The notes under the pieces were generated by a model that was given only the letters and a program-made list of their open reading frames with translations, had not been told where the DNA came from and ran no database searches. Both the position numbers and the translations under genes were made by a program. Below are positions 7,764-17,853 of a DNA stretch of 42,443 bases, in pieces. The DNA is from Verrucomicrobiota bacterium (lineage in GTDB: Bacteria > Verrucomicrobiota > Verrucomicrobiia > Limisphaerales > UBA8199): assembly GCA_037130375.1 (NCBI GenBank), contig JBAXTC010000003.1, positions 1 through 42,443 on the forward strand, in the 5' to 3' direction. Position 1 is the first letter of the stretch. Every line of letters starts with the position of its first letter.

Positions 7764-7852
7764 TCAATTAAGCCATCCGTTTCCAATCAAAAGATGTTAC
7801 GGAAAATGACCAAAAAACACAACCGCTAATTGCGGCGTTTCTTGGATGAAAA

Positions 7853-7900
7853 ACACCATTAGTTGTGGAGTTTGCGTTTGCAACCGCCAATATATTGGGT
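7853..7900. promoter_or_regulatory. Tandem NrdR-like boxes upstream of gyrB
   Basis: Core caatatattg (7888-7897) matches CWATATATWG exactly; weaker acaccattagttgtg (core 7856-7865) lies 32 bp away, a spacing typical of NrdR pairs. Confidence 0.6.
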
Positions 7901-7902
7901 GT

Positions 7903-7997
7903 TTCGGAGCATCCCCGCTGACTGATTCAACCTACGATTATCGGGCCTTAAAAGCAAGCGGCTTTCGATCATTTGGACAGCCCACGGCGCGCAGCGG
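7903..7997. repeat. 95-bp direct repeat, copy 1; contains a candidate gyrB sigma70 promoter on the minus strand (TTGCTT-17-TAGGTT, 7957-7929)
   Basis: Ungapped match to 9929-10023, 80/95 identical by manual alignment. Confidence 0.85.
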
Positions 7998-7998
7998 G

Positions 7999-8124
7999 TT
8001 CATTGGCGCCATCAATGATGCCAACTACCAGGGGAGCAATTCGGCTGACAGCCAAATCACGCGCAAAGCGCTGACGGTGTCGGTCTCCTTCTCGGGCACG
8101 CCGAATGGTGTCTTCGACGATGGA
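7999..8124 (+). pseudogene. Short fragment resembling an MBG/YDG-type adhesin repeat
   Basis: Reads INDANYQGSNSADSQITRKALTV; no credible start codon; motif resemblance only. Confidence 0.35.
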
Positions 8125-8135
8125 TTCAGGGAGGT

Positions 8136-9440
8136 TCATTTTGGAGGGATTGACAGCCGGTGGCTCATTCCAATTTTCTTCCGCCACTCGTTGCCGACTC
8201 GAGCCTCCGCCGCAAATTCCGGCCACCGTGCCACTGCCGCCCGCACTTCCTCGATGATCGTTCTGGCCCGGCCCCGTTTCATCAGGGCGGATTTTGCGCA
8301 AGCCTCGAAGTCATCCCTCGTAAAGCCATCCCTTCTGCCATTGAGTGTCATTTGGTGGGTGGCGGTCCACGAACCCGAAGGATTGTAGCTGTAGATCACA
8401 TCAAACGCCGGCGCGAGGGACCAATGGCTCTGTTTGTCCATCAAGAAGGCAATGTTCTTGACGTGATCATCCTGATTTCGGGCGATGATGTTGAAGACCG
8501 TCCGCCGAAACTGTTCTTCGACTGCTGACATCGGCAGTTTGAGTTGGCGGATCGTGAGCATCGCTTGTTCGTAGGCATAGGCGCCGGCTTGGTTGAAATC
8601 AAAATGCGCCATCGCCCCCAGCGACTGCATGTGCAGCTTTTCGCCGCCGTCGAGCCGGTCGAACCGCCGGGTCATGAAATGTCGCCGCCCGTTTTCTTCC
8701 AGAAGCCGGCATTCGTTCATCCTGATTCCCCCCGCCACTGCCATCAGATGATAGGCATACTCAATCGCACCATAGCCCTTCGGGTCTTCCAACTCCTTGT
8801 CCTTGTTGGCGGCGACGCCATCGAACTTCAGCAGCCAGTAATCGAATCCGTCTCCAGCCGTGATCTGGCCGGATCGAACTTCGTTCGTTTCGCGGTTCCA
8901 CGCGATCACGGCCTTGGCCCGTGCTCCCCCGGCGGACGTTCCCACCCGCAGTATATCGTTCAACGCCTTCTCGCGCCCTGCCCCGCCAAAATTGGCTTTC
9001 AATTCGTTGCGGTGAGTTAAGACATCTGACGCGAGCCGGACCAGCGCATCAATCTCGATCTTTGTCGCCTTGCCTGGTTTGGGGCCAAGCACGGGGGCAA
9101 ACTCCAGCGCGCCCATTCCGCGCGTGCCCGTGTAGCACAGGCGCTCGACGGCGCCAAAGCTCTCCGGCGCCCGGCCCTGTGTTGCGAGCCATGCATCGAC
9201 CAGGGCGTTGCCAAACTTGTCCGGCAGCGAATCCGCCAGCAAACCAGGCAGGCCGTGAAAGGTTTTTTGCGGCAGTTCCGGGAATTCATAAACACGATCG
9301 CTCAACGGCATGCTCAGAGGGGCAATCTCGATGCCGCTTCGGGCAAACTCAGGGTCGTATTGGAAAGCGGCATGGTCCCGGCCTTCCTCCATCATAACAG
9401 CCCCGATGGTCCGCCCCCAGAGCTGGACCTTGGCGATCAT
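8136..9440 (-). CDS. hipA: HipA-family kinase toxin
   Basis: N-terminal Couple_hipA region (LADSLPDKFG), SAGGARAK P-loop, WLLKF, RNQDDHVKN, LAPAFD. Confidence 0.92.
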   Translation of the reverse strand: MIAKVQLWGRTIGAVMMEEGRDHAAFQYDPEFARSGIEIAPLSMPLSDRVYEFPELPQKTFHGLPGLLADSLPDKFGNALVDAWLATQGRAPESFGAVERLCYTGTRGMGALEFAPVLGPKPGKATKIEIDALVRLASDVLTHRNELKANFGGAGREKALNDILRVGTSAGGARAKAVIAWNRETNEVRSGQITAGDGFDYWLLKFDGVAANKDKELEDPKGYGAIEYAYHLMAVAGGIRMNECRLLEENGRRHFMTRRFDRLDGGEKLHMQSLGAMAHFDFNQAGAYAYEQAMLTIRQLKLPMSAVEEQFRRTVFNIIARNQDDHVKNIAFLMDKQSHWSLAPAFDVIYSYNPSGSWTATHQMTLNGRRDGFTRDDFEACAKSALMKRGRARTIIEEVRAAVARWPEFAAEARVGNEWRKKIGMSHRLSIPPK

Positions 9441-9790
9441 GACGGCTCACCCCATGTCCATTTCGGAGCCGCGATTGTCGCAGCCTTTTGGCCCGAGGCC
9501 CGCTGACGTTTCTTGCCTTGCAGTTTCAACTGCGCGATGGGACTGGCCGCCGGTTCGGGAATGAGCGTATCGAACCGCTCCACCAAGCCGAGAACCCGAC
9601 AGACCCTGACAAAACCAGACAACTGAGTTGCCGCCGCTCCCGATTCCAAACGTTGCAACGTCCGAATGCCAAGTCCTGCCTGTTCCGCCAGCCCCTCTTG
9701 AGTGAGGTTTTTCACCAAACGAAGCCGGGCCAATCGCTCCCCAATCAGCTTGAGAAGGCTTTCGTCGGTCATTTGTGATTCAATCTTCAT
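9437..9790 (-). CDS. XRE-family HTH antitoxin (HipB-like)
   Basis: LRLVKNLTQEGLAEQAGLGIRTLQRLESG HTH; ATGA overlap with hipA. Confidence 0.88.
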   Translation of the reverse strand: MKIESQMTDESLLKLIGERLARLRLVKNLTQEGLAEQAGLGIRTLQRLESGAAATQLSGFVRVCRVLGLVERFDTLIPEPAASPIAQLKLQGKKRQRASGQKAATIAAPKWTWGEPS

Positions 9791-11805: not shown

Positions 11806-12518
11806 TGGGTTGGCTTGATGGTTCCCTCGATCACGAGCAGGTTCTTGATATGGCCGTCGGCGTACAAGAAGTTCTTCGCCTTCGCGTCGCCGCGGGCGAT
11901 ATGGAACTTCTCTTTGTCAAACATCAACGGTATTTCATGTGGCTCGAATTTCAGGTCGATTCCTATTAAACTCACGACTAACTGCTCGGCGTCCTTCCCG
12001 TTAAGGAAATCGTTCCACGCGTAGCTCGAGCCGGTTTGTTCAAAAAAGGTTGGTCCTTTTTCCGGCAGGCTAGACTTGTTGGGCGGCCACTTGTCGGATG
12101 GACACCGCAGCACGTTCAGGTTGCCGAGCGAACTGACAAGCACCTGGTCCGGGCCAGCATACTTGTTGGTAACCCCCGGGTAGATGTCGGACATGCAGGG
12201 CAACCGATTCCGGTTGTCCCCGACGTAGAGCTGAAGCGCGATGCCGATTTGGTGCAAATTGCTGAGGCAGCCGGTGGCCTTTGCGCTTTCTTTCGCCCGG
12301 CTGAGCACGGGCAGAAGGAGCGCGGCCAACATGGCAATAATGGCAATGACCACCAGCAGTTCGATCAAGGTGAAGGCGACGCCTGGAGCGACCTTGTCAG
12401 GCTCGGGAGCCACCTCAGCGGGGTCGCCGTGACAACCTCCGCCCTCGGCCTTCTCCCTTCCCGCCTCGCAACTCTCGCCGCGCACCTCGGATTTCGGATT
12501 TCGGGCTTTCCGCTTCAT
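11802..12518 (-). CDS. Prepilin-type N-methylation domain protein (PVC DUF1559 / H-X9-DG-like family)
   Basis: [30 protein letters not shown]...CLSNLHQIG; C-terminal FH...NFLYADGH. Confidence 0.88.
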
Positions 12519-13141
12519 CTTCCGCGAAACGGTCTTCCGCTTTCCATGACGCGTTGCAACTCCTCGAGGACCGGAGCCAGCTCGGCTTTGGTCTGCGCGG
12601 AGCTTTGGCTGTAAAAGGTCTTCAGGCCAATGGTCCGCATTTTCGCCTGAAGTTCGTTACTCAAAACCGGCGGCCCATTTGTGCCAGTCCGATTCCCACC
12701 GCGCGGGCCGGTTGGAGATTGGCCGCTGGCTTCCCTAAGCCGCCGCAGCGCGTCATCGATGGTCCGGCGTCGTTGTTCGTCCGGTAACTGTTCAAAGGAG
12801 GACAGCATTTGTTTGAAACCGGTGGGCATGGTAGCTTCGAGGAACGCGGACTTTTCGTCCTCTGTCATCTGATCGAACCAGCCCCAGGCCAGGCGGTCCA
12901 TTCGCGCCTTGCGGCGCTCTTCGAGTGACAACGCGTTGATTTTGTCTGCCAGTTCTTTAAGGGCCTGGGCTCGCGCATCTCCGGACAACTTGCTCAAATC
13001 GACTGACGCCGCGTAGGCCCTCACCTTCTCGGCTGTCAGCTTGGTGTTCTTGGCAATCTTGTACCCAGCCAAAGCGACCAGCCAGATCGCCAGTATCGCA
13101 ACCACGCATAGGAACACCGGCCGCCATCGTTGACTTACCAT
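12515..13141 (-). CDS. Hypothetical membrane-anchored helical protein
   Basis: 208-aa ORF, single N-terminal TM, ATGA-coupled to the pilin-like gene. Confidence 0.8.
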
Positions 13142-13153
13142 GCCGCGAGTTTA

Positions 13154-13561
13154 TCACGGCGCATTGGGTTCGCCACGAGAATTCGCAAGGCGCTCCTCAT
13201 TGAGAATTGGGATCATGGCATCGAGTTTGGCTCCCACTTCAGGATGGATTTCTTCGGGTTTCATCTGAGCGGCAATTTGAAAGAAGTCTTTCTTGGAGAG
13301 CTGGGCTTCGGTCTTTTCCAGGAAGTCAGGCAGGATGGATTTGCTGGCGGCGGTGGAAACGAGGTAATCGCTCTCCTTGAGTGGATTCTTCAGAGCGGGC
13401 GGCGGGAAGTTATCTTTGAGAAAATCCTCGCCGTTCTTGCGCCGGACGGTGGAGAGAAGGTCAGGGTCTGGACCTGCGACAAAACGCATGAGCGCCTGGG
13501 GATGGAGGAGGTAGTTTTCAATTTCAAGCTGAACGAGGAAAGTGGTGTCCGCCCCGATCAT
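13154..13561 (-). pseudogene. Chimeric ORF: VapC/PIN N-terminus (MIGADTTFLVQLEI) fused in frame to the C-terminal part of an OLD/AAA-type ATPase (EIENYLLHP...PEEIHPEV)
   Basis: xxxDTTFL PIN start motif; EIENYLL motif typical of OLD/DUF4435-type nuclease tails; junction at the shared E-I codons 13520-13525. Confidence 0.5.
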
Positions 13562-13571
13562 AGCCGCGCAG

Positions 13572-13661
13572 TGAGAGAATGAACCGCTCGATTCCAGGAT
13601 CAATGAAGAAACCCGCTTCGGAGCGAAGCCGATCGAGTTCGGTTCGCAGGCTGGGGAGGCG
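13572..13661 (-). pseudogene. DUF3368-like (PIN-associated) C-terminal fragment
   Basis: Manual translation RLPSLRTELDRLRSEAGFFIDPGIERFILS; not in ORF track. Confidence 0.5.
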
Positions 13662-13718
13662 GTGGAATCCAATTCGAGCCATCCGGCCACCATCCAACCC
13701 CACGGCAGCGCAATAATG

Positions 13719-13874
13719 TCAGAGTCGAGCAGGCGGCCCCGGCCGGCCTATTTCGCTGAAGGTGAGGACACTGACAGCCACCGGTTCCGGGGGCCGCGCA
13801 TGAAGCGAGGCCGACAGGTCAAAGCCTTCGCGTTCTTCCGCGATCAGCAATGAACTATCGAGGATCAGCCCCAC
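13719..13874 (-). pseudogene. Truncated VapC/PIN toxin (about 41 homologous aa)
   Basis: GTG start overlapping the antitoxin end; MGLILDSSLLIAEERE...PVAVSVLTFSE then unrelated sequence and TGA after 51 aa. Confidence 0.75.
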
Positions 13875-14131
13875 GGATTCTTGAGGGACTTGAGCGCCTT
13901 GCGGCCCTTGCGCACGGCCGCCGCGAGATCGCGTCGGTCTTCAGCAGGCAAATCAGCATGGGCGAGGTCGTCCGCCAGTTCATGGCTGTTGCACCCCTCA
14001 GTCGAGGCCGGGACGAGGAGGGCGTAGGGGACGCCGAGCTTGACGATGGCAAAGGTTTCCTTCCGGGAATAGACCCGGTTGACACAGTCGCTGAAGCTTT
14101 TCGACGCTTCCGTCACACTCAATGTTTTCAT
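13865..14131 (-). CDS. Phd/YefM-family antitoxin
   Basis: MKTLSVTEASKSFSDCVNRV...FAIVKLGVPYALLVP; candidate promoter TTGACT-16-TAGAGT ending 6 nt before the ATG. Confidence 0.85.
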   Translation of the reverse strand: MKTLSVTEASKSFSDCVNRVYSRKETFAIVKLGVPYALLVPASTEGCNSHELADDLAHADLPAEDRRDLAAAVRKGRKALKSLKNPWG

Positions 14132-14178
14132 GCGGACACTCTATCGCACGCTTCCACCAAGTCAAGGAAGGGGGCTGG

Positions 14179-14252
14179 CGCCCTGCGCGGCCCAGCCAAC
14201 AGCGAAAAATTCGATGACGAGGGAACCTTCGTTGGCGGCCTGCCGCAGGGCG
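14179..14252. repeat. Imperfect GC-rich inverted repeat (REP-like hairpin)
   Basis: cgccctgcg...gccaac pairs with gttggc...cgcagggcg. Confidence 0.4.
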
Positions 14253-14455
14253 GCGACGGAGGGGCCGGAATGCTGCGGGTCGTTCAGCAGCATGCAAGTG
14301 TCAGTACTCACTATTTACACTCCCCAAGTGAAAGGGGCAACCCATAGGCTGGTTCTGTGAATGAGAATGAACGCAAGTCGCCATAATCAAGCACTCTCGA
14401 GAATCCGGGCGGTTATGCCCTTGGGGTCTTTGCGTTTATTCGCAACAACGGCCTT

Positions 14456-14527
14456 ATCGCGGGTGAGTTCCGCGTAGCCCTTGAGCAGGGCGTCCCAGGA
14501 TTCCCCATCGGCAAGTTGGCCGAGAAT
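14456..14527 (-). pseudogene. DUF433-family antitoxin internal fragment (followed by a weak HicA-like tail to 14387)
   Basis: ILGQLADGESWDALLKGYAELTRD resembles the DUF433 core IL..LA.G.S...IL..YP.LT.ED. Confidence 0.6.
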
Positions 14528-14573
14528 GGCCGGGTGATGCCAAGCTGTGCGATGCAGTTCAGCAACACGGTGC

Positions 14574-14792
14574 CGCGCCGAGCTCGACCTCCCCCAGAAA
14601 ATGGGCCGCCTCAAATAATGGTGCGCCGACGCCACCGCCGCCGAAGAGAACGGTCAGCAATACGATTTCGTCTTCGTTGACCAGAACCCCTTCGAAAAGT
14701 GGTTCCAGAACCAGGGACCCAAGAGTTTCGCCTCCCTTGCCGCCGCCTTCACGGATTACCAACCCTGCAAGGCTGACTTTGATACATCTTAG
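14574..14792 (+). pseudogene. C-terminal fragment of a type III restriction endonuclease (Res) with an internal stop
   Basis: Manual translation RAELDLPQKMGRLK*WCADATAAEENGQQYDFVFVDQNPFEK...FASLAAAFTDY; TAA at 14616-14618. Confidence 0.65.
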
Positions 14793-14857
14793 CAGGTTTA
14801 CAAAAACGTTGTAACTTGGCTAACTTTAGTATAAATACCCCCGCATGTCTCCTGTAA

Positions 14858-15232
14858 CTCCAGGAGTGGGGTAAGCATTCCTGGGATACCGCGGTCGCCT
14901 CTCCCATCACCCTGCACGATGTCCAACTGGCCTCCCAGTCCGCTGTCGCTGCCCTCGACGAAAGTTTCTTCCGTGTGCGCTTTGACCGCCTGACCCCGCT
15001 GGAAAAACGTTACCTCCGTGCGATGTCCGAGCTGGGCGCTGGCCCTCATCGCTCCGGCGACATCGCCGACCAACTCCGCCGCGAGGTCACCAACCTCGCC
15101 CCAACGCGCGGCCAGTTGATTTCCAAAGGCATGGTTTGGAGCCCGAGCCACGGCGACACCGCCTTTACCGTCCCGCTCTTCAACGAGTTCATGCGCCGCA
15201 TCATGCCCGGCGATGAATGGAAACAGACGTAA
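14858..15232 (+). pseudogene. 5'-truncated AAA+ ATPase with C-terminal winged helix
   Basis: Homology-like frame starts LQEWGKHSWD right after an in-frame TAA (14855-57), continues FFRVRFDRLTPLEKRYLRAM...FTVPLF; no Walker motifs present. Confidence 0.75.
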
Positions 15233-15233
15233 C

Positions 15234-15655
15234 TTTGACGAGGTGTTCACGGACCGGCTGACAGGGGTGGGCGGGCTGCTGGAAATGCGATTAACGGAGT
15301 CGATCACGTTTTCGGGGATGCGCTGGATCAGGCAGCCGATCCCAGGGACAGCAAAGGCAAAGGGGGAGTGACGATCATGCAGGACGGCGGGATGCAGGAG
15401 GGCAACCGGGCGGTGCGGGGGAGCGTGACGTGCGCGACGCGGGTGGTGGGGGAGAGCTGGGCGCGGCAACAGCGGGCGCTGCTGACGGGGGACGACGACG
15501 GGAATCACCATCCGATGCCGGAACAACTGGATTGCGAGTTTGAATTCGTGCCGCGCCGGGATGGGGTGGCGACGGGGGATGGGCAGAACGTGCGGCTGTT
15601 TCGGGTGGGGTTTGCGTTTGGGGAAACGCTGCCGAACTATCTGCCGAAGTCCTGA
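15234..15655 (+). pseudogene. 5'-truncated, frameshifted gene fragment of unknown function
   Basis: FDEVFTDRLTG...MRWIRQPIPG frame switches near the G run at 15345-47 into DSKGKGGVTIMQDG...LPNYLPKS*; distinctly G-rich composition. Confidence 0.4.
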
Positions 15656-15667
15656 GTACTGGCGTTA

Positions 15668-15695
15668 ACGCGTCCGCTGCACCAAAGGGTTGCGC
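15668..15695 (-). mobile_element. Truncated attC (R''/L'' half only) after cassette 4
   Basis: Minus strand GCGCAAC-cctttggtgcagcggacgcg immediately after the cassette stop codon; no matching L'/R' arm. Confidence 0.5.
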
Positions 15696-15697
15696 CC

Positions 15698-16003
15698 TCA
15701 TATATATAGCCGAATGCCAAAGTATAGCAGGCGCAGGGCGACGGCAGCAAAGACAACTGCAGCCAGCCACAGCACAACCGCGATGATCGGACGCCTTCCG
15801 AATGGTTCAGCAGCAGCCTTGGAGCGCGAGACAAAATAAAAAGGAACTCCGAAGAGAGCAACGAAGATCCCGGCGAAGAACGCAATTGGGCTGTCATACC
15901 GGTGGAGAGCGACGTCCACAAAAGGCATGGCCATGTAAACGAGGCCGCAGGCGACAAAAAGGCAGCAAACCATCCGCAGTGTTTTCGAGAGGTCCAGTGC
16001 CAT
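15698..16003 (-). CDS. Integron cassette 4: small membrane protein (101 aa, about 3 TM)
   Basis: ATG 14 nt after the GTTAAGC core; three hydrophobic segments. Confidence 0.7.
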   Translation of the reverse strand: MALDLSKTLRMVCCLFVACGLVYMAMPFVDVALHRYDSPIAFFAGIFVALFGVPFYFVSRSKAAAEPFGRRPIIAVVLWLAAVVFAAVALRLLYFGIRLYI

Positions 16004-16017
16004 GGGCAAAGTGCGAC

Positions 16018-16069
16018 GCTTAACGACGCGCATCATCGACCCCGCGCCACTGATGCTTGGCATGCAAAC
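16018..16069 (-). mobile_element. Truncated attC (L'/R' half only)
   Basis: Minus strand ...cgcggggtcgatgatgcgcgtc-GTTAAGC; the upstream arm is missing and replaced by the PEP-CTERM coding tail. Confidence 0.6.
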
Positions 16070-16784
16070 AAACAAAAGCTGCGCCAATACAGAGCAATTC
16101 TAACGAGCTAGGCTCTGGAACTGATTGCGGAGAAAACTGAATGCTGTCCAAGGTGAATATGTTCTCGTTAGCTGGAAAGCTGCCGGGTGTGGCTTGGCAC
16201 AAAATCGTGAGGTCAACCGCCGTGCCTGCGTAAGCGCTAATGTCGCCCGCCATCGTCATGACTCCACCGGATGTCGAAATCGGGGAAAGGCCAATGGGTG
16301 TGCCGTTAATAGTGACGATAGGACTCGCCTGTATAACGCCACCTGCAACCGGCGGACTCATCATCAAAAATTGGATGGAATGTGACCCGAGAGGGATCTG
16401 GCCGGTCTGCGAAATAGATGCCGTGTGAAAACAACTGGATGGAGCATCTGCGTATACGTAAAACTGGATGCTGTAACTACCCTGGAGCGGGACATAGCCA
16501 GAATAATATCCGTTGTTCGCGGTGAGCAAGGCAACCGATGTCTCATCAAGTGCGACAGGCGCTCCCCATACCGCTGTGCATACAGTGCCGTCCTCGCGCA
16601 CCGTCCAATACGGTAAAGCACTCGATGCCAAGAGTGCGTCATAAGCATCCCACGGCGTGTAGCCGCTGGGGGCAGAGACTATGGTGGCCTGCTCAAAATT
16701 TAGATTGGCAAATCCCTGACCAAATGCGCTCTGCAACAGAACGCACGAAACAATAACCGACCAAATGATATGCGTATGTTTCAT
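16020..16784 (-). CDS. Integron cassette 3: secreted PEP-CTERM sorting-domain protein
   Basis: Signal peptide, FANLNFE start, C-terminal VPEPSSL plus a hydrophobic stretch; lower GC than the backbone. Confidence 0.85.
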   Translation of the reverse strand: MKHTHIIWSVIVSCVLLQSAFGQGFANLNFEQATIVSAPSGYTPWDAYDALLASSALPYWTVREDGTVCTAVWGAPVALDETSVALLTANNGYYSGYVPLQGSYSIQFYVYADAPSSCFHTASISQTGQIPLGSHSIQFLMMSPPVAGGVIQASPIVTINGTPIGLSPISTSGGVMTMAGDISAYAGTAVDLTILCQATPGSFPANENIFTLDSIQFSPQSVPEPSSLELLCIGAAFVCLHAKHQWRGVDDARR

Positions 16785-16799
16785 AAGACGTGGCCAAGG

Positions 16800-16899
16800 G
16801 TCTAACGGCTAGAGCTCAGGCACGAGGGACCAAAAGGCGTGAACCGCGAAGCGGAACTGAAAGCGCCATCCCGCGTTGCCTGCAGCGATTTTGTTAGGC
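16800..16899 (-). mobile_element. attC site (100 bp)
   Basis: R'' GCCTAAC ... ctgcaggca / tgcctgag ... R' GTTAGAC; imperfect palindrome right after the cassette 2 stop. Confidence 0.88.
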
Positions 16900-16906
16900 T
16901 GCGTTG

Positions 16907-17188
16907 TCATGAGTAAGTGATAACCAAAGACACGACGCCGTAGAGCGCGAAGGCGGGAAGCCAGATGAGCACAAAGGCAATCGGCGATTGCCAAGGCTGG
17001 CCGCGCCAGAAAAGAGGAATGACGGAAACCAATGCAGCAGCGGCAACGGCAGCAGTCAAAATCGCAAGGTGGGCCTCTCGGTCGTAGCTGCTCCATTTTG
17101 ACAGAACCTGCGTGAGTGTCCACAACACCGCGTTCAAGACGACACCCGTGCCGAGTCTCAGCCATCCTTCTGTCTTCGAGCGAGTCAT
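16907..17188 (-). CDS. Integron cassette 2: small membrane protein (93 aa, about 3 TM)
   Basis: ORF fills the space between two attC sites. Confidence 0.75.
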   Translation of the reverse strand: MTRSKTEGWLRLGTGVVLNAVLWTLTQVLSKWSSYDREAHLAILTAAVAAAALVSVIPLFWRGQPWQSPIAFVLIWLPAFALYGVVSLVITYS

Positions 17189-17201: not shown

Positions 17202-17297
17202 GCCTAACGCTCCGCCTGAGCTACAGCCGCCACTCCAGAACCTCTGGAGCACCAACGACTGACGTGGCGGCTGTTAGCTCCAGGCGGCTTGTTCGGC
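17202..17297 (-). mobile_element. attC site (96 bp)
   Basis: R'' GCCGAAC, L'' cctggagc, L' gctcagg (extra-helical G), R' GTTAGGC; inner stem acagccgccac/gtggcggctgt. Confidence 0.92.
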
Positions 17298-17304
17298 TGT
17301 GCCT

Positions 17305-17553
17305 TCAAGACTCTTCTGGCCGTTTCCCAAAGAACTCAAGATGGCTGCACTGGCAGCACTGTAGAGCATAACCCTCGATGAACAGGGCTTTGTATCTTGT
17401 GCCAAACGAGCCATGTCCATGCCACTGGAAGCCGCCACTGCTACATTGCGAGCAAATGACCGGCTTGCCACCAGCCTGAAACTGACGTGGGCGGAGGGTC
17501 TCTTTCACTGCTGCTTTTACTCCGCGTTTAATTGCTGTGATGGTCTTGTTCAT
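17305..17553 (-). CDS. Integron cassette 1: small zinc-ribbon protein (82 aa)
   Basis: CSQC...CCQC pair; ATG 15 nt after the attI core; followed by attC. Confidence 0.75.
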   Translation of the reverse strand: MNKTITAIKRGVKAAVKETLRPRQFQAGGKPVICSQCSSGGFQWHGHGSFGTRYKALFIEGYALQCCQCSHLEFFGKRPEES

Positions 17554-17568
17554 AATTGTGTCGAAGTC

Positions 17569-17610
17569 GCCGAACGTTGAATATACGATGACCCGTTCGT
17601 ATATCGAACG
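17569..17610 (-). mobile_element. Putative attI site
   Basis: Core GTTCGGC (17575-17569) preceded by cgtatattcaac with no attC palindrome upstream; 14-bp inverted repeat (12/14); lies between intI remnant and first cassette. Confidence 0.7.
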
Positions 17611-17645
17611 ACGCAGATCCGGCCGGCAAACCCTTTCATGCAATG

Positions 17646-17675: not shown

Positions 17676-17706
17676 TCCCCCTTTTTAAGCTACCCTACCC
17701 TCCATT

Positions 17707-17853
17707 GGTCGCTACGGCGCCTTTCTGAAGGAGCCGAGGTTCAAAAACCTGACCACCGAAAAGAAGTTAGCCGGCTTCCTCACCCGGTTGGCTCTCTCGG
17801 GCGTCTCAGCCTCCACGCAAAACCAGGCCTTCAATGCCTTGCTTTGCTTTTAA
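17707..17853 (+). pseudogene. intI: Integron integrase remnant (N-terminal SAM-like domain only)
   Basis: Manual translation GRYGAFLKEPRFKNLTTEKKLAGFLTRLALSGVSASTQNQAFNALLCF*; VSASTQNQA(F/L)NAL is the IntI N-terminal signature; divergent from the cassettes; start and catalytic domain missing. Confidence 0.85.

Follow-up and report, generated by a model that had tools for sequence, protein, structure and literature searches.

A dense mosaic of toxin-antitoxin and defence gene pieces

We analysed a stretch of 42,443 nucleotides (nt; hereafter the window) from contig JBAXTC010000003.1 of a Verrucomicrobiota bacterium, and in particular its region 13154-15655, which holds one whole gene, encoding a Phd antitoxin of 88 amino acids (aa), together with pieces of at least six unrelated genes (Table 1). 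An earlier interpretation made from the letters only (the sequence-only reading) had described this region as a dense mosaic biased to toxin-antitoxin (TA) and defence genes, and direct protein searches confirmed that description. About 1657 of the 2502 nt could be assigned to identified pieces of 39-405 nt, and at least seven break junctions fall within approximately 1.7 kb.

Table 1. Pieces of the mosaic and integron-like features beside it, with positions in the window
Feature	Position	Strand	Description
Nuclease-gene 3' tail	13154-13558	-	About 121 codons plus stop of an AAA-ATPase/Toprim-like nuclease gene; 13 homologues
DUF3368 (PIN-like) remnant	13572-13693	-	Two frames: residues 55-67 (13655-13693) and 129-157 (13572-13658) of a 161-aa protein
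Filler, origin not traced	13694-13748		55 nt; one frame reads PIN-head-like 'LLDSDIIAL' (13694-13747)
VapC/PIN toxin head	13749-13874	-	Codons 1-42 of 133; start overlaps the end of the Phd gene
Phd/YefM-type antitoxin, whole	13865-14131	-	88 aa; 102 of the 120 listed relatives
49/50-codon open reading frame, no known family	14162-14314	-	Ends 30 nt before the Phd start
DUF433 gene, 5'-truncated	14387-14530	-	Lacks the first 26 codons; residues 27-73 of 73 plus stop
Type III Res-like (ResIII/DEAD) helicase C-terminal tail	14565-14792	+	About 66 codons at 14565-14762; in-frame TAA at 14616-14618
AT-rich spacer	14793-14857		65 nt, separates two plus-strand tails; fold not significant
AAA_16/AAA_22 ATPase 3' tail	14858-15232	+	Codons 274-397 of 397 plus stop; C-terminal DNA-binding-like part
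GC-rich stretch, origin not traced	15233-15697		Coding-like third-position GC in plus-strand frame 15239-15655
Weaker attC-like site	16800-16899	-	Cores GTCTAAC/GTTAGGC; 8 nt after the stop of ORF 16907-17188
Strong attC-like site	17202-17297	-	Imperfect palindrome with single-base bulges; 8 nt after the stop of ORF 17305-17643
Integron-integrase remnant	17704-17850	+	About 49 codons, N-terminal SAM-like domain only; cut off at 17853

Profile libraries recovered little of the mosaic. We listed the stop-to-stop frames of at least 30 codons in 13142-15700 and scanned 30 frames with Pfam, NCBIfam and PADLOC. Pfam returned three relevant matches, all under its curated cut-offs (DUF3368, E 0.04; PhdYeFM, E 6.4e-4; DUF433, E 0.015), and five further weak matches that we took as chance. 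The only NCBIfam match was phd_fam (E 0.0098), and the only one in PADLOC was a weak CARF match, probably also due to chance. Confirmation by profiles, which the sequence-only reading had proposed for each fragment, therefore stopped at sub-threshold matches, whereas direct searches of very large protein sets confirmed most pieces. Profile libraries alone would have missed the mosaic.

One of these searches used the minus-strand frame 13157-14653 with its seven stops read as X (query P0001), which was compared with proteins shorter than 274 aa and gave 167 matches among 3496 candidates. According to BLASTP, 102 of the 120 matches listed correspond to the Phd open reading frame (ORF), two more to Phd variants, 13 to the nuclease tail and two to the DUF433 ORF; one is the 179-aa ORF 13154-13693 of the window itself (99% identity). 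The limits of the pieces were set by aligning relatives back onto the window with tblastn. The minus-strand read-through has no plasmid match (tblastn).

Three ORFs that span junctions of the mosaic, of 179, 82 and 49 aa (13154-13693, 14387-14635 and 14162-14311, all on the minus strand), are present in public protein sets (P0002, P0011 and P0266, respectively). Gene callers annotate such junction debris as genes, and the resulting 'hypothetical proteins' spread in databases. The recurrence of these ORFs bears on the possibility that the mosaic is an assembly artefact, namely a chimeric contig built from conserved TA and defence genes of co-occurring strains. Because they recur at 98-99% identity in other assemblies, which are possibly not independent, we consider a misassembly very improbable; moreover, the cluster of the 179-aa ORF comprises nine member sequences on two contigs, the junction between Res and DUF433 is common to another protein (P0109) and base composition is even across the region. 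What favours an artefact is that the source is apparently uncultured, that all 73 related loci described below are metagenome-derived records and that the families are abundant and highly conserved, with 8000 candidates for the AAA_16 frame.

Identity and limits of the pieces

Phd is the only intact gene, as the sequence-only reading had stated, and its product probably belongs to the Phd/YefM family. Its 102 relatives among the matches listed are mostly 88 aa long, share 63-99% identity with it and carry antitoxin names in their sources, while its profile scores lie below cut-off (19.9 against 29.8 bits in Pfam; 15.2 against 20.8 in NCBIfam). Just upstream of its start lies a sigma-70-like site, TTGACT-16-TAGAGT (14138-14165, minus strand), the sole one in 13-16 kb and, as a count, at chance level; its placement ahead of Phd is as expected for a self-expressed TA module.

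Downstream of Phd we found no whole PIN toxin but only its first 42 codons. When the frame 13527-13940 (query P0122) was searched against the protein sets, 21 of 100 candidates matched, namely 18 proteins of PIN/VapC type (17 with PF01850, most of 133 aa) and three DUF3368 proteins of 161 aa. VapC residues 1-42 align to 13874-13749, with 67-88% identity over the 18 PIN-type matches and 81-88% to the 133-aa proteins, and one of these relatives (P0126) matches Pfam PIN at E 1.5e-14. Of the two VapC N-termini that had been claimed, this one stands. The segment MIGADTTFLVQL (approximately 13525-13570) is more simply interpreted as part of the nuclease tail than as a second VapC head, because two of the 13 nuclease-tail homologues align across it, with a short gap. 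The string 'LLDSDIIAL' in the filler has no relative in the P0001 and P0122 searches and resembles a PIN head at motif level only.

The DUF3368 remnant matches two proteins at 97% (P0141) and 85% (P0140) identity, and its piece covering residues 129-157 at 97%. P0141 itself is recognized by Pfam as DUF3368 at E 4.6e-5, as compared with 0.04 for the window frame. By these alignments, the two pieces are the remnant of one gene, with an internal deletion and a frameshift between them. The DUF3368 tail expected from the sequence is therefore present, but not as a tail alone, since residues 55-67 survive on the other side of the deletion.

The nuclease tail is matched by 13 of the 120 proteins listed, at 59-85% identity; in one of them (P0009) residues 124-247 align to 13558-13196. 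Contig ends truncate these homologues (up to 267 aa), which carry an ATPase-like part upstream. In the window frame the tail has no Pfam, NCBIfam or PADLOC match, and three homologues (P0103, P0009 and P0088) have no Pfam match. Therefore, the OLD/AAA tail of the sequence-only reading is kept as the tail of an AAA/Toprim-like nuclease, but not under the OLD label: profiles detected neither the ATPase nor the OLD-type Toprim domain that together define the OLD family, and the OLD/DUF4435 assignment comes from motifs and from language-model look-alike scores of 0.91-0.95 to DUF4435, AAA_15/21 and OLD-like_TOPRIM clusters, which we treat as a lead only. In one further protein (P0035) the same tail is cut at a different point and fused to a 2Fe-2S ferredoxin-like head. 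In the window, the tail ends 12 nt ahead of the start of a conserved 208-aa gene (12515-13141).

An exhaustive phmmer search of 14165-14653 against 1.84 billion representatives returned three proteins only, which are the 82-aa ORF itself, the 49-aa ORF 14162-14311 itself and a 73-aa DUF433 protein (P0267). Residues 27-73 of the latter align to 14390-14530 at 98% identity and its N-terminus is that of a normal DUF433 protein, so the window gene lacks its first 26 codons. The family assignment made from the sequence was thus correct, but the piece is a 5'-truncated gene rather than a DUF433 core. Its apparent N-terminus is the antisense of the Res tail, and the same 5' junction occurs in P0109. 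The remnant (14387-14635, minus strand) is known in three states: with a whole N-terminus and the window C-terminus (P0267), truncated with a canonical C-terminus (P0109), and truncated with the window C-terminus. BLASTP gave no support for the window C-terminus being a frameshifted version of the canonical one. For the 49-aa ORF the sole match is the same ORF (P0266, 98%), and 14165-14314 has no plasmid match (tblastn).

The type III Res tail with an internal stop is supported by its 42% identity (E 3e-9) to the last 62 or so residues of an 895-aa ResIII helicase, which is encoded on an Aminobacter plasmid just after a DNA methyltransferase. The Res-tail frame has no PDB sequence match, and the window contains no Mod methyltransferase, which a type III restriction-modification system requires beside Res.

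The AAA-wHTH (winged helix-turn-helix) tail was also confirmed, with 14858-15229 being 100% identical to residues 274-397 of a 397-aa protein (P0146). The frame 14858-15652 (query P0123) had 8000 scored candidates, and each of the 120 matches listed corresponds to the first 124 residues of the frame; the majority are AAA_16/AAA_22 proteins of 396-397 aa with 80-100% identity. Two shorter proteins, P0145 (157 aa) and P0148 (171 aa), are longer 5'-truncated tails of this family with other breakpoints. A homologue with 61% identity, on a replicon of Vibrio sp. HDW18 (L075, 3764-5384), lies between two copies of a 129-nt repeat, within an array of ten such repeat heads; it is on the strand opposite to most cassettes, as is likewise the case in the window. 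The AAA_16 family was found on 108 plasmids, and the source names of the close matches (83-85% identity) include Verrucomicrobia, Hyphomicrobiales and Acidobacteria, which suggests wide horizontal spread. For the remaining part of the frame, 15239-15652, which the sequence-only reading had called a frameshifted unknown gene, we found no relatives, no plasmid match (tblastn) and a poor predicted structure with no usable Atlas lead; neither its status as a gene nor the frameshift was confirmed.

A worn integron beside the mosaic

The mosaic had been placed at the distal end of an integron array, and this holds, although the array is worn. The frame 17689-17850 (plus strand) encodes the N-terminal domain of a tyrosine recombinase (Pfam Phage_int_SAM_4, E 1.8e-5), and its sole NCBIfam match is the integron integrase TIGR02249 (E 1.2e-4, profile positions 26-74 of 315). 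There is no Phage_integrase domain in the 43 ORFs of the window or in the frames around 17.6-18.4 kb, and the full-length integrase of a complete integron is therefore missing. The integrase remnant has no plasmid match (tblastn) and no PDB sequence match; the gene after it belongs to a pilus-type ATPase cluster. From the 5' end of the remnant to 15.7 kb every ORF is on the minus strand, as for cassettes.

A strict core search (RYYYAAC ... GTTRRRY, 50-150 nt) returned one site, at 16800-16899, which is palindromic and counted on both strands (a count of 2, as compared with 1.8 in shuffles). The site at 17202-17297 was found once one core mismatch was permitted. Its single-stranded fold is much stronger than expected (z-scores of -6.2 and -6.3), and none of 200 shuffles folds as well. 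The termini CAGCCKAACAA and CGTTAGRCC are common to both sites and occur nowhere else in the window at 0 mismatches; after each site, the next ORF starts at 14-16 nt. Clusters of attC sites lacking integron-integrases (CALIN) are defined by at least two attC sites within 4 kb, each after an ORF. Of the two sites that could count here, 17202-17297 folds significantly, while 16800-16899 has matching cores and termini and a z-score of -0.6. A relaxed scan for cores plus fold gave many matches inside ordinary genes and was not used as evidence, and two attC candidates within the mosaic, 15518-15604 and 14366-14440, fold no better than shuffles. In 12.5-18.5 kb, Rfam returned one chance-level miRNA match, over the 17.2-kb hairpin. 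The integron context is real but eroded.

Repeat, tRNA, core and fold scans of the mosaic were negative for regular repeats, tRNA genes and attC-like sites; the sequence-only reading had likewise seen no regular repeats or attC sites there. No transposase family was found among the 30 frames in the Pfam scan, and no separate search was aimed at insertion sequence (IS) ends. At 15689-15695 (minus strand), 3 nt after the stop of ORF 15698-16087 and in the position of an attC-like first core, there is a GCGCAAC. With one mismatch in this 7-mer, it may represent what remains of a half-site on the margin of the eroded zone, which we regard as a weak lead only.

The same position in related species

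The window comes from the chromosome of an uncultured Verrucomicrobiota bacterium, with gyrA and gyrB at 2.5-7.7 kb. It also carries a HipBA pair, an ABC transporter, a prepilin-like gene, the 208-aa gene (minus strand) and then housekeeping and signalling genes. By searching with the 208-aa protein we collected 73 related loci labelled Verrucomicrobia, Limisphaerales or similar (50-82% identity), a set that does not include the window's own species. The order of the 208-aa gene, the prepilin-like gene and the ABC transporter is kept in these loci, and gyrB follows the permease in 20 of them. None of 13 fragment queries was found in any of the 73 loci, and the same was true for eight of ten window genes queried from 15.7-22.8 kb, the other two being pilus-type (T2SSE) ATPases found in a single locus (L034). 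Gene order therefore breaks exactly at 13141. Full-length donors of the pieces gave one match in the 73 loci, an unrelated DUF3368-type gene in L052.

We also scanned the ORFs upstream of the 208-aa gene in 56 loci (70 ORFs in eight loci, and 136 of 139 ORFs in 48 loci, with three ORFs longer than 1100 aa left out); 32 small ORFs rescanned at E 0.01 gave no match. The commonest neighbour is gcvP, in 15 loci; in three loci it is tyrA. TA or defence-like domains occur within approximately 3 kb in two of the 56 loci. One (L073) has Phd, PIN and DUF4143; the other, the closest relative (L003, 1-1855), has an AAA_15/AAA_21 ATPase and a 313-aa protein that belongs to no family; both genes share the strand of the 208-aa gene. 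The L003 ATPase has a weak NCBIfam match to the retron Eco8 effector (E 0.0011), and a comparison of the pair with the nuclease tail of the window showed that they are unrelated. Since only two of 56 loci carry TA or defence-like genes, this chromosomal position is variable but not a general defence hotspot.

This survey bears directly on the explanation that the sequence-only reading had preferred, an active hotspot in which TA and defence modules are repeatedly inserted, each overwriting part of the previous one and leaving a layered record. The break at 13141 in all 73 loci and the unrelated ATPase pair at the same position in the closest relative fit such a hotspot, yet the rarity of TA and defence-like genes at this position, where gcvP is so much more frequent, speaks against it. 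Similarly, 5'-truncated tails from the same families, broken at other points, turn up elsewhere (P0035, P0145 and P0148), and excerpts of a preprint describe integrase-driven cassette insertion outside att sites (10.1101/2022.09.11.507474), but the integrase here is down to about 49 codons and the mosaic has no attC-like site, IS-like repeat or tRNA gene in the scans above, in which IS ends were not separately searched. Altogether, none of our tests gave support to repeated capture and overwriting as such, and we regard an active hotspot as unlikely. A related idea, to which we give even less credence, is that the far end of the integron joins incoming TA and defence modules independently of att sites, for example by the integrase or by other recombination at secondary sites inside genes. 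If this were true, every newly joined module would cut into the gene before it, which would account for the recurrence of 5'-truncated tails with varied breakpoints, and the mosaic would be a readable stack of successive acquisitions.

Discussion

The mosaic probably formed by decay, as one deletion after another took place at the far end of an integron-like array, now dead, or of a cassette-like island beside one. The island would once have held Phd-VapC, a DUF3368 PIN-like gene, DUF433, an AAA/Toprim-like nuclease, a type III Res-like helicase and an AAA_16 ATPase. We infer that the integrase was lost first, and that at least seven illegitimate deletions then took most of each gene together with any recombination sites between them, leaving heads joined to tails.

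The form of the junctions fits this reading. On the minus strand, the VapC head (residues 1-42) is followed by DUF3368 residues 55-67, the internal deletion, DUF3368 residues 129-157 and the nuclease tail. Res and DUF433 are divergent genes that each lack the 5' end, with 34 nt now separating what is left of them, and on the plus strand two tails, Res and AAA_16, stand in succession. Nowhere does a whole module lie between two halves of one gene. Every junction is of the form that results from a deletion, while an insertion would leave a whole module between gene halves, and this counts further against the hotspot. Less-eroded states are also found in other assemblies for DUF433 (P0267), the AAA_16 tails (P0145 and P0148) and the nuclease tail (P0035). 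Junction geometry, the dead integrase, the loss of the toxin before the antitoxin and these less-truncated variants make serial deletion, which the sequence-only reading had kept as its conservative alternative, the better explanation.

In type II TA systems the toxin can be lost first and the cell survives, which is not the case when the antitoxin is lost first. Phd would therefore be intact and VapC cut because toxin-first loss is the only order that a cell survives. The nuclease tail may have been retained because, lying 12 nt upstream of the conserved operon, it probably carries the expression signals of that operon; a promoter scan found no consensus site at the nuclease tail near the 208-aa operon.

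Whether the pieces descend from cassettes is a separate matter. A cassette origin is plausible, because the Vibrio homologue of the AAA_16 ATPase is flanked by repeats and because TA cassettes are enriched in chromosomal integrons, according to excerpts of PMC13108822. As far as excerpts of the following sources go, integrons occur in Verrucomicrobia, integrase-free arrays, intI pseudogenes and isolated sites ascribed to the degradation of cassettes are on record (PMC4889954), intI is truncated or absent in most Xanthomonas strains (PMC12444791), and truncated intI genes and arrays without integrase are common (both sources).

It is rather doubtful, though a serious contender, that the pieces come from an ordinary TA and defence island that decayed without any relation to the integron, whose remnant 2-4 kb away would be a coincidence or would mark a shared rearrangement breakpoint. 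No attC-like site lies in or beside any piece, and a defence island would accommodate the plus-strand pieces and the large genes no less well than an array. Furthermore, the HipBA pair inserted elsewhere in the window without any integron. On the other hand, the minus-strand pieces point the same way as the cassette-like ORFs at 15.7-17.6 kb, the AAA_16 family forms a repeat-flanked cassette in the Vibrio array, and TA cassettes are typical of chromosomal integrons in the excerpts of PMC13108822.

Several observations weigh against decay of a cassette array. It is unusual for a gene as large as Res (895 aa) to be a cassette. The stretch 13.1-16.0 kb showed neither a pair of attC-like cores nor a significant hairpin, and hence no piece shows the recombination site expected of a cassette. 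The integrase remnant scores under both curated cut-offs (25.5 against 27 bits, and 21.5 against 265 bits), and the site at 16800-16899 folds no better than shuffles. The three states of the DUF433 remnant need recombination or repeated change, and neither a simple series of deletions nor a linear history accounts for them. Finally, none of the 73 related loci holds any piece, and a relative with intact genes in this order, which the sequence-only reading had suggested looking for, was not found among them.

Compared with known systems, the locus resembles decaying chromosomal integrons and CALIN, with which, as described in excerpts of PMC4889954 (IntegronFinder) and, for Xanthomonas, PMC12444791, it shares a truncated intI, few attC-like sites, small ORFs on the same strand and TA genes. 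It differs in having one strongly folding site and one weaker, and in that beyond approximately 16.0 kb there are no sites but gene pieces only. With the TA cassettes of sedentary chromosomal integrons (excerpts of PMC13108822) it shares a promoter-bearing Phd-VapC module in the array, DUF433 and DUF3368/PIN-like genes; here, however, the antitoxin alone is whole, and with a toxin that breaks off after 42 codons the module can neither impose addiction nor guard against excision.

The clustering of defence and TA genes and their loss by many small deletions are shared with defence islands and with genomes under deletional bias. Defence islands with pseudogene debris were reportedly described by Makarova et al. 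in 2011, and the deletional bias of bacterial genomes is said to go back to Mira, Ochman and Moran in 2001. The debris here is unusually dense in comparison. The kind of decay is thus already known, and the locus is a further example of it. It is compact and well resolved, a case of the death of TA and defence cassettes in which the toxin would have gone first, the antitoxin was kept and tails beside useful neighbours were retained, and it adds an integron remnant in Verrucomicrobiota, a phylum in which integrons are little studied. It also holds two practical lessons, namely that such debris is almost invisible to profile libraries but can be recovered by searching very large protein sets directly, and that junction-spanning debris called as genes enters databases under the name of hypothetical proteins.

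Elsewhere in the window, the HipA/HipB pair (8136-9790) and an unassigned ORF (7846-8388) take up the 2.3 kb that separate the ABC permease from gyrB. In 19 of the 20 related loci with gyrB after the permease the two genes are less than 700 nt apart, and HipA is present in none of the 20. HipBA is therefore a second, intact TA insertion in the same window.

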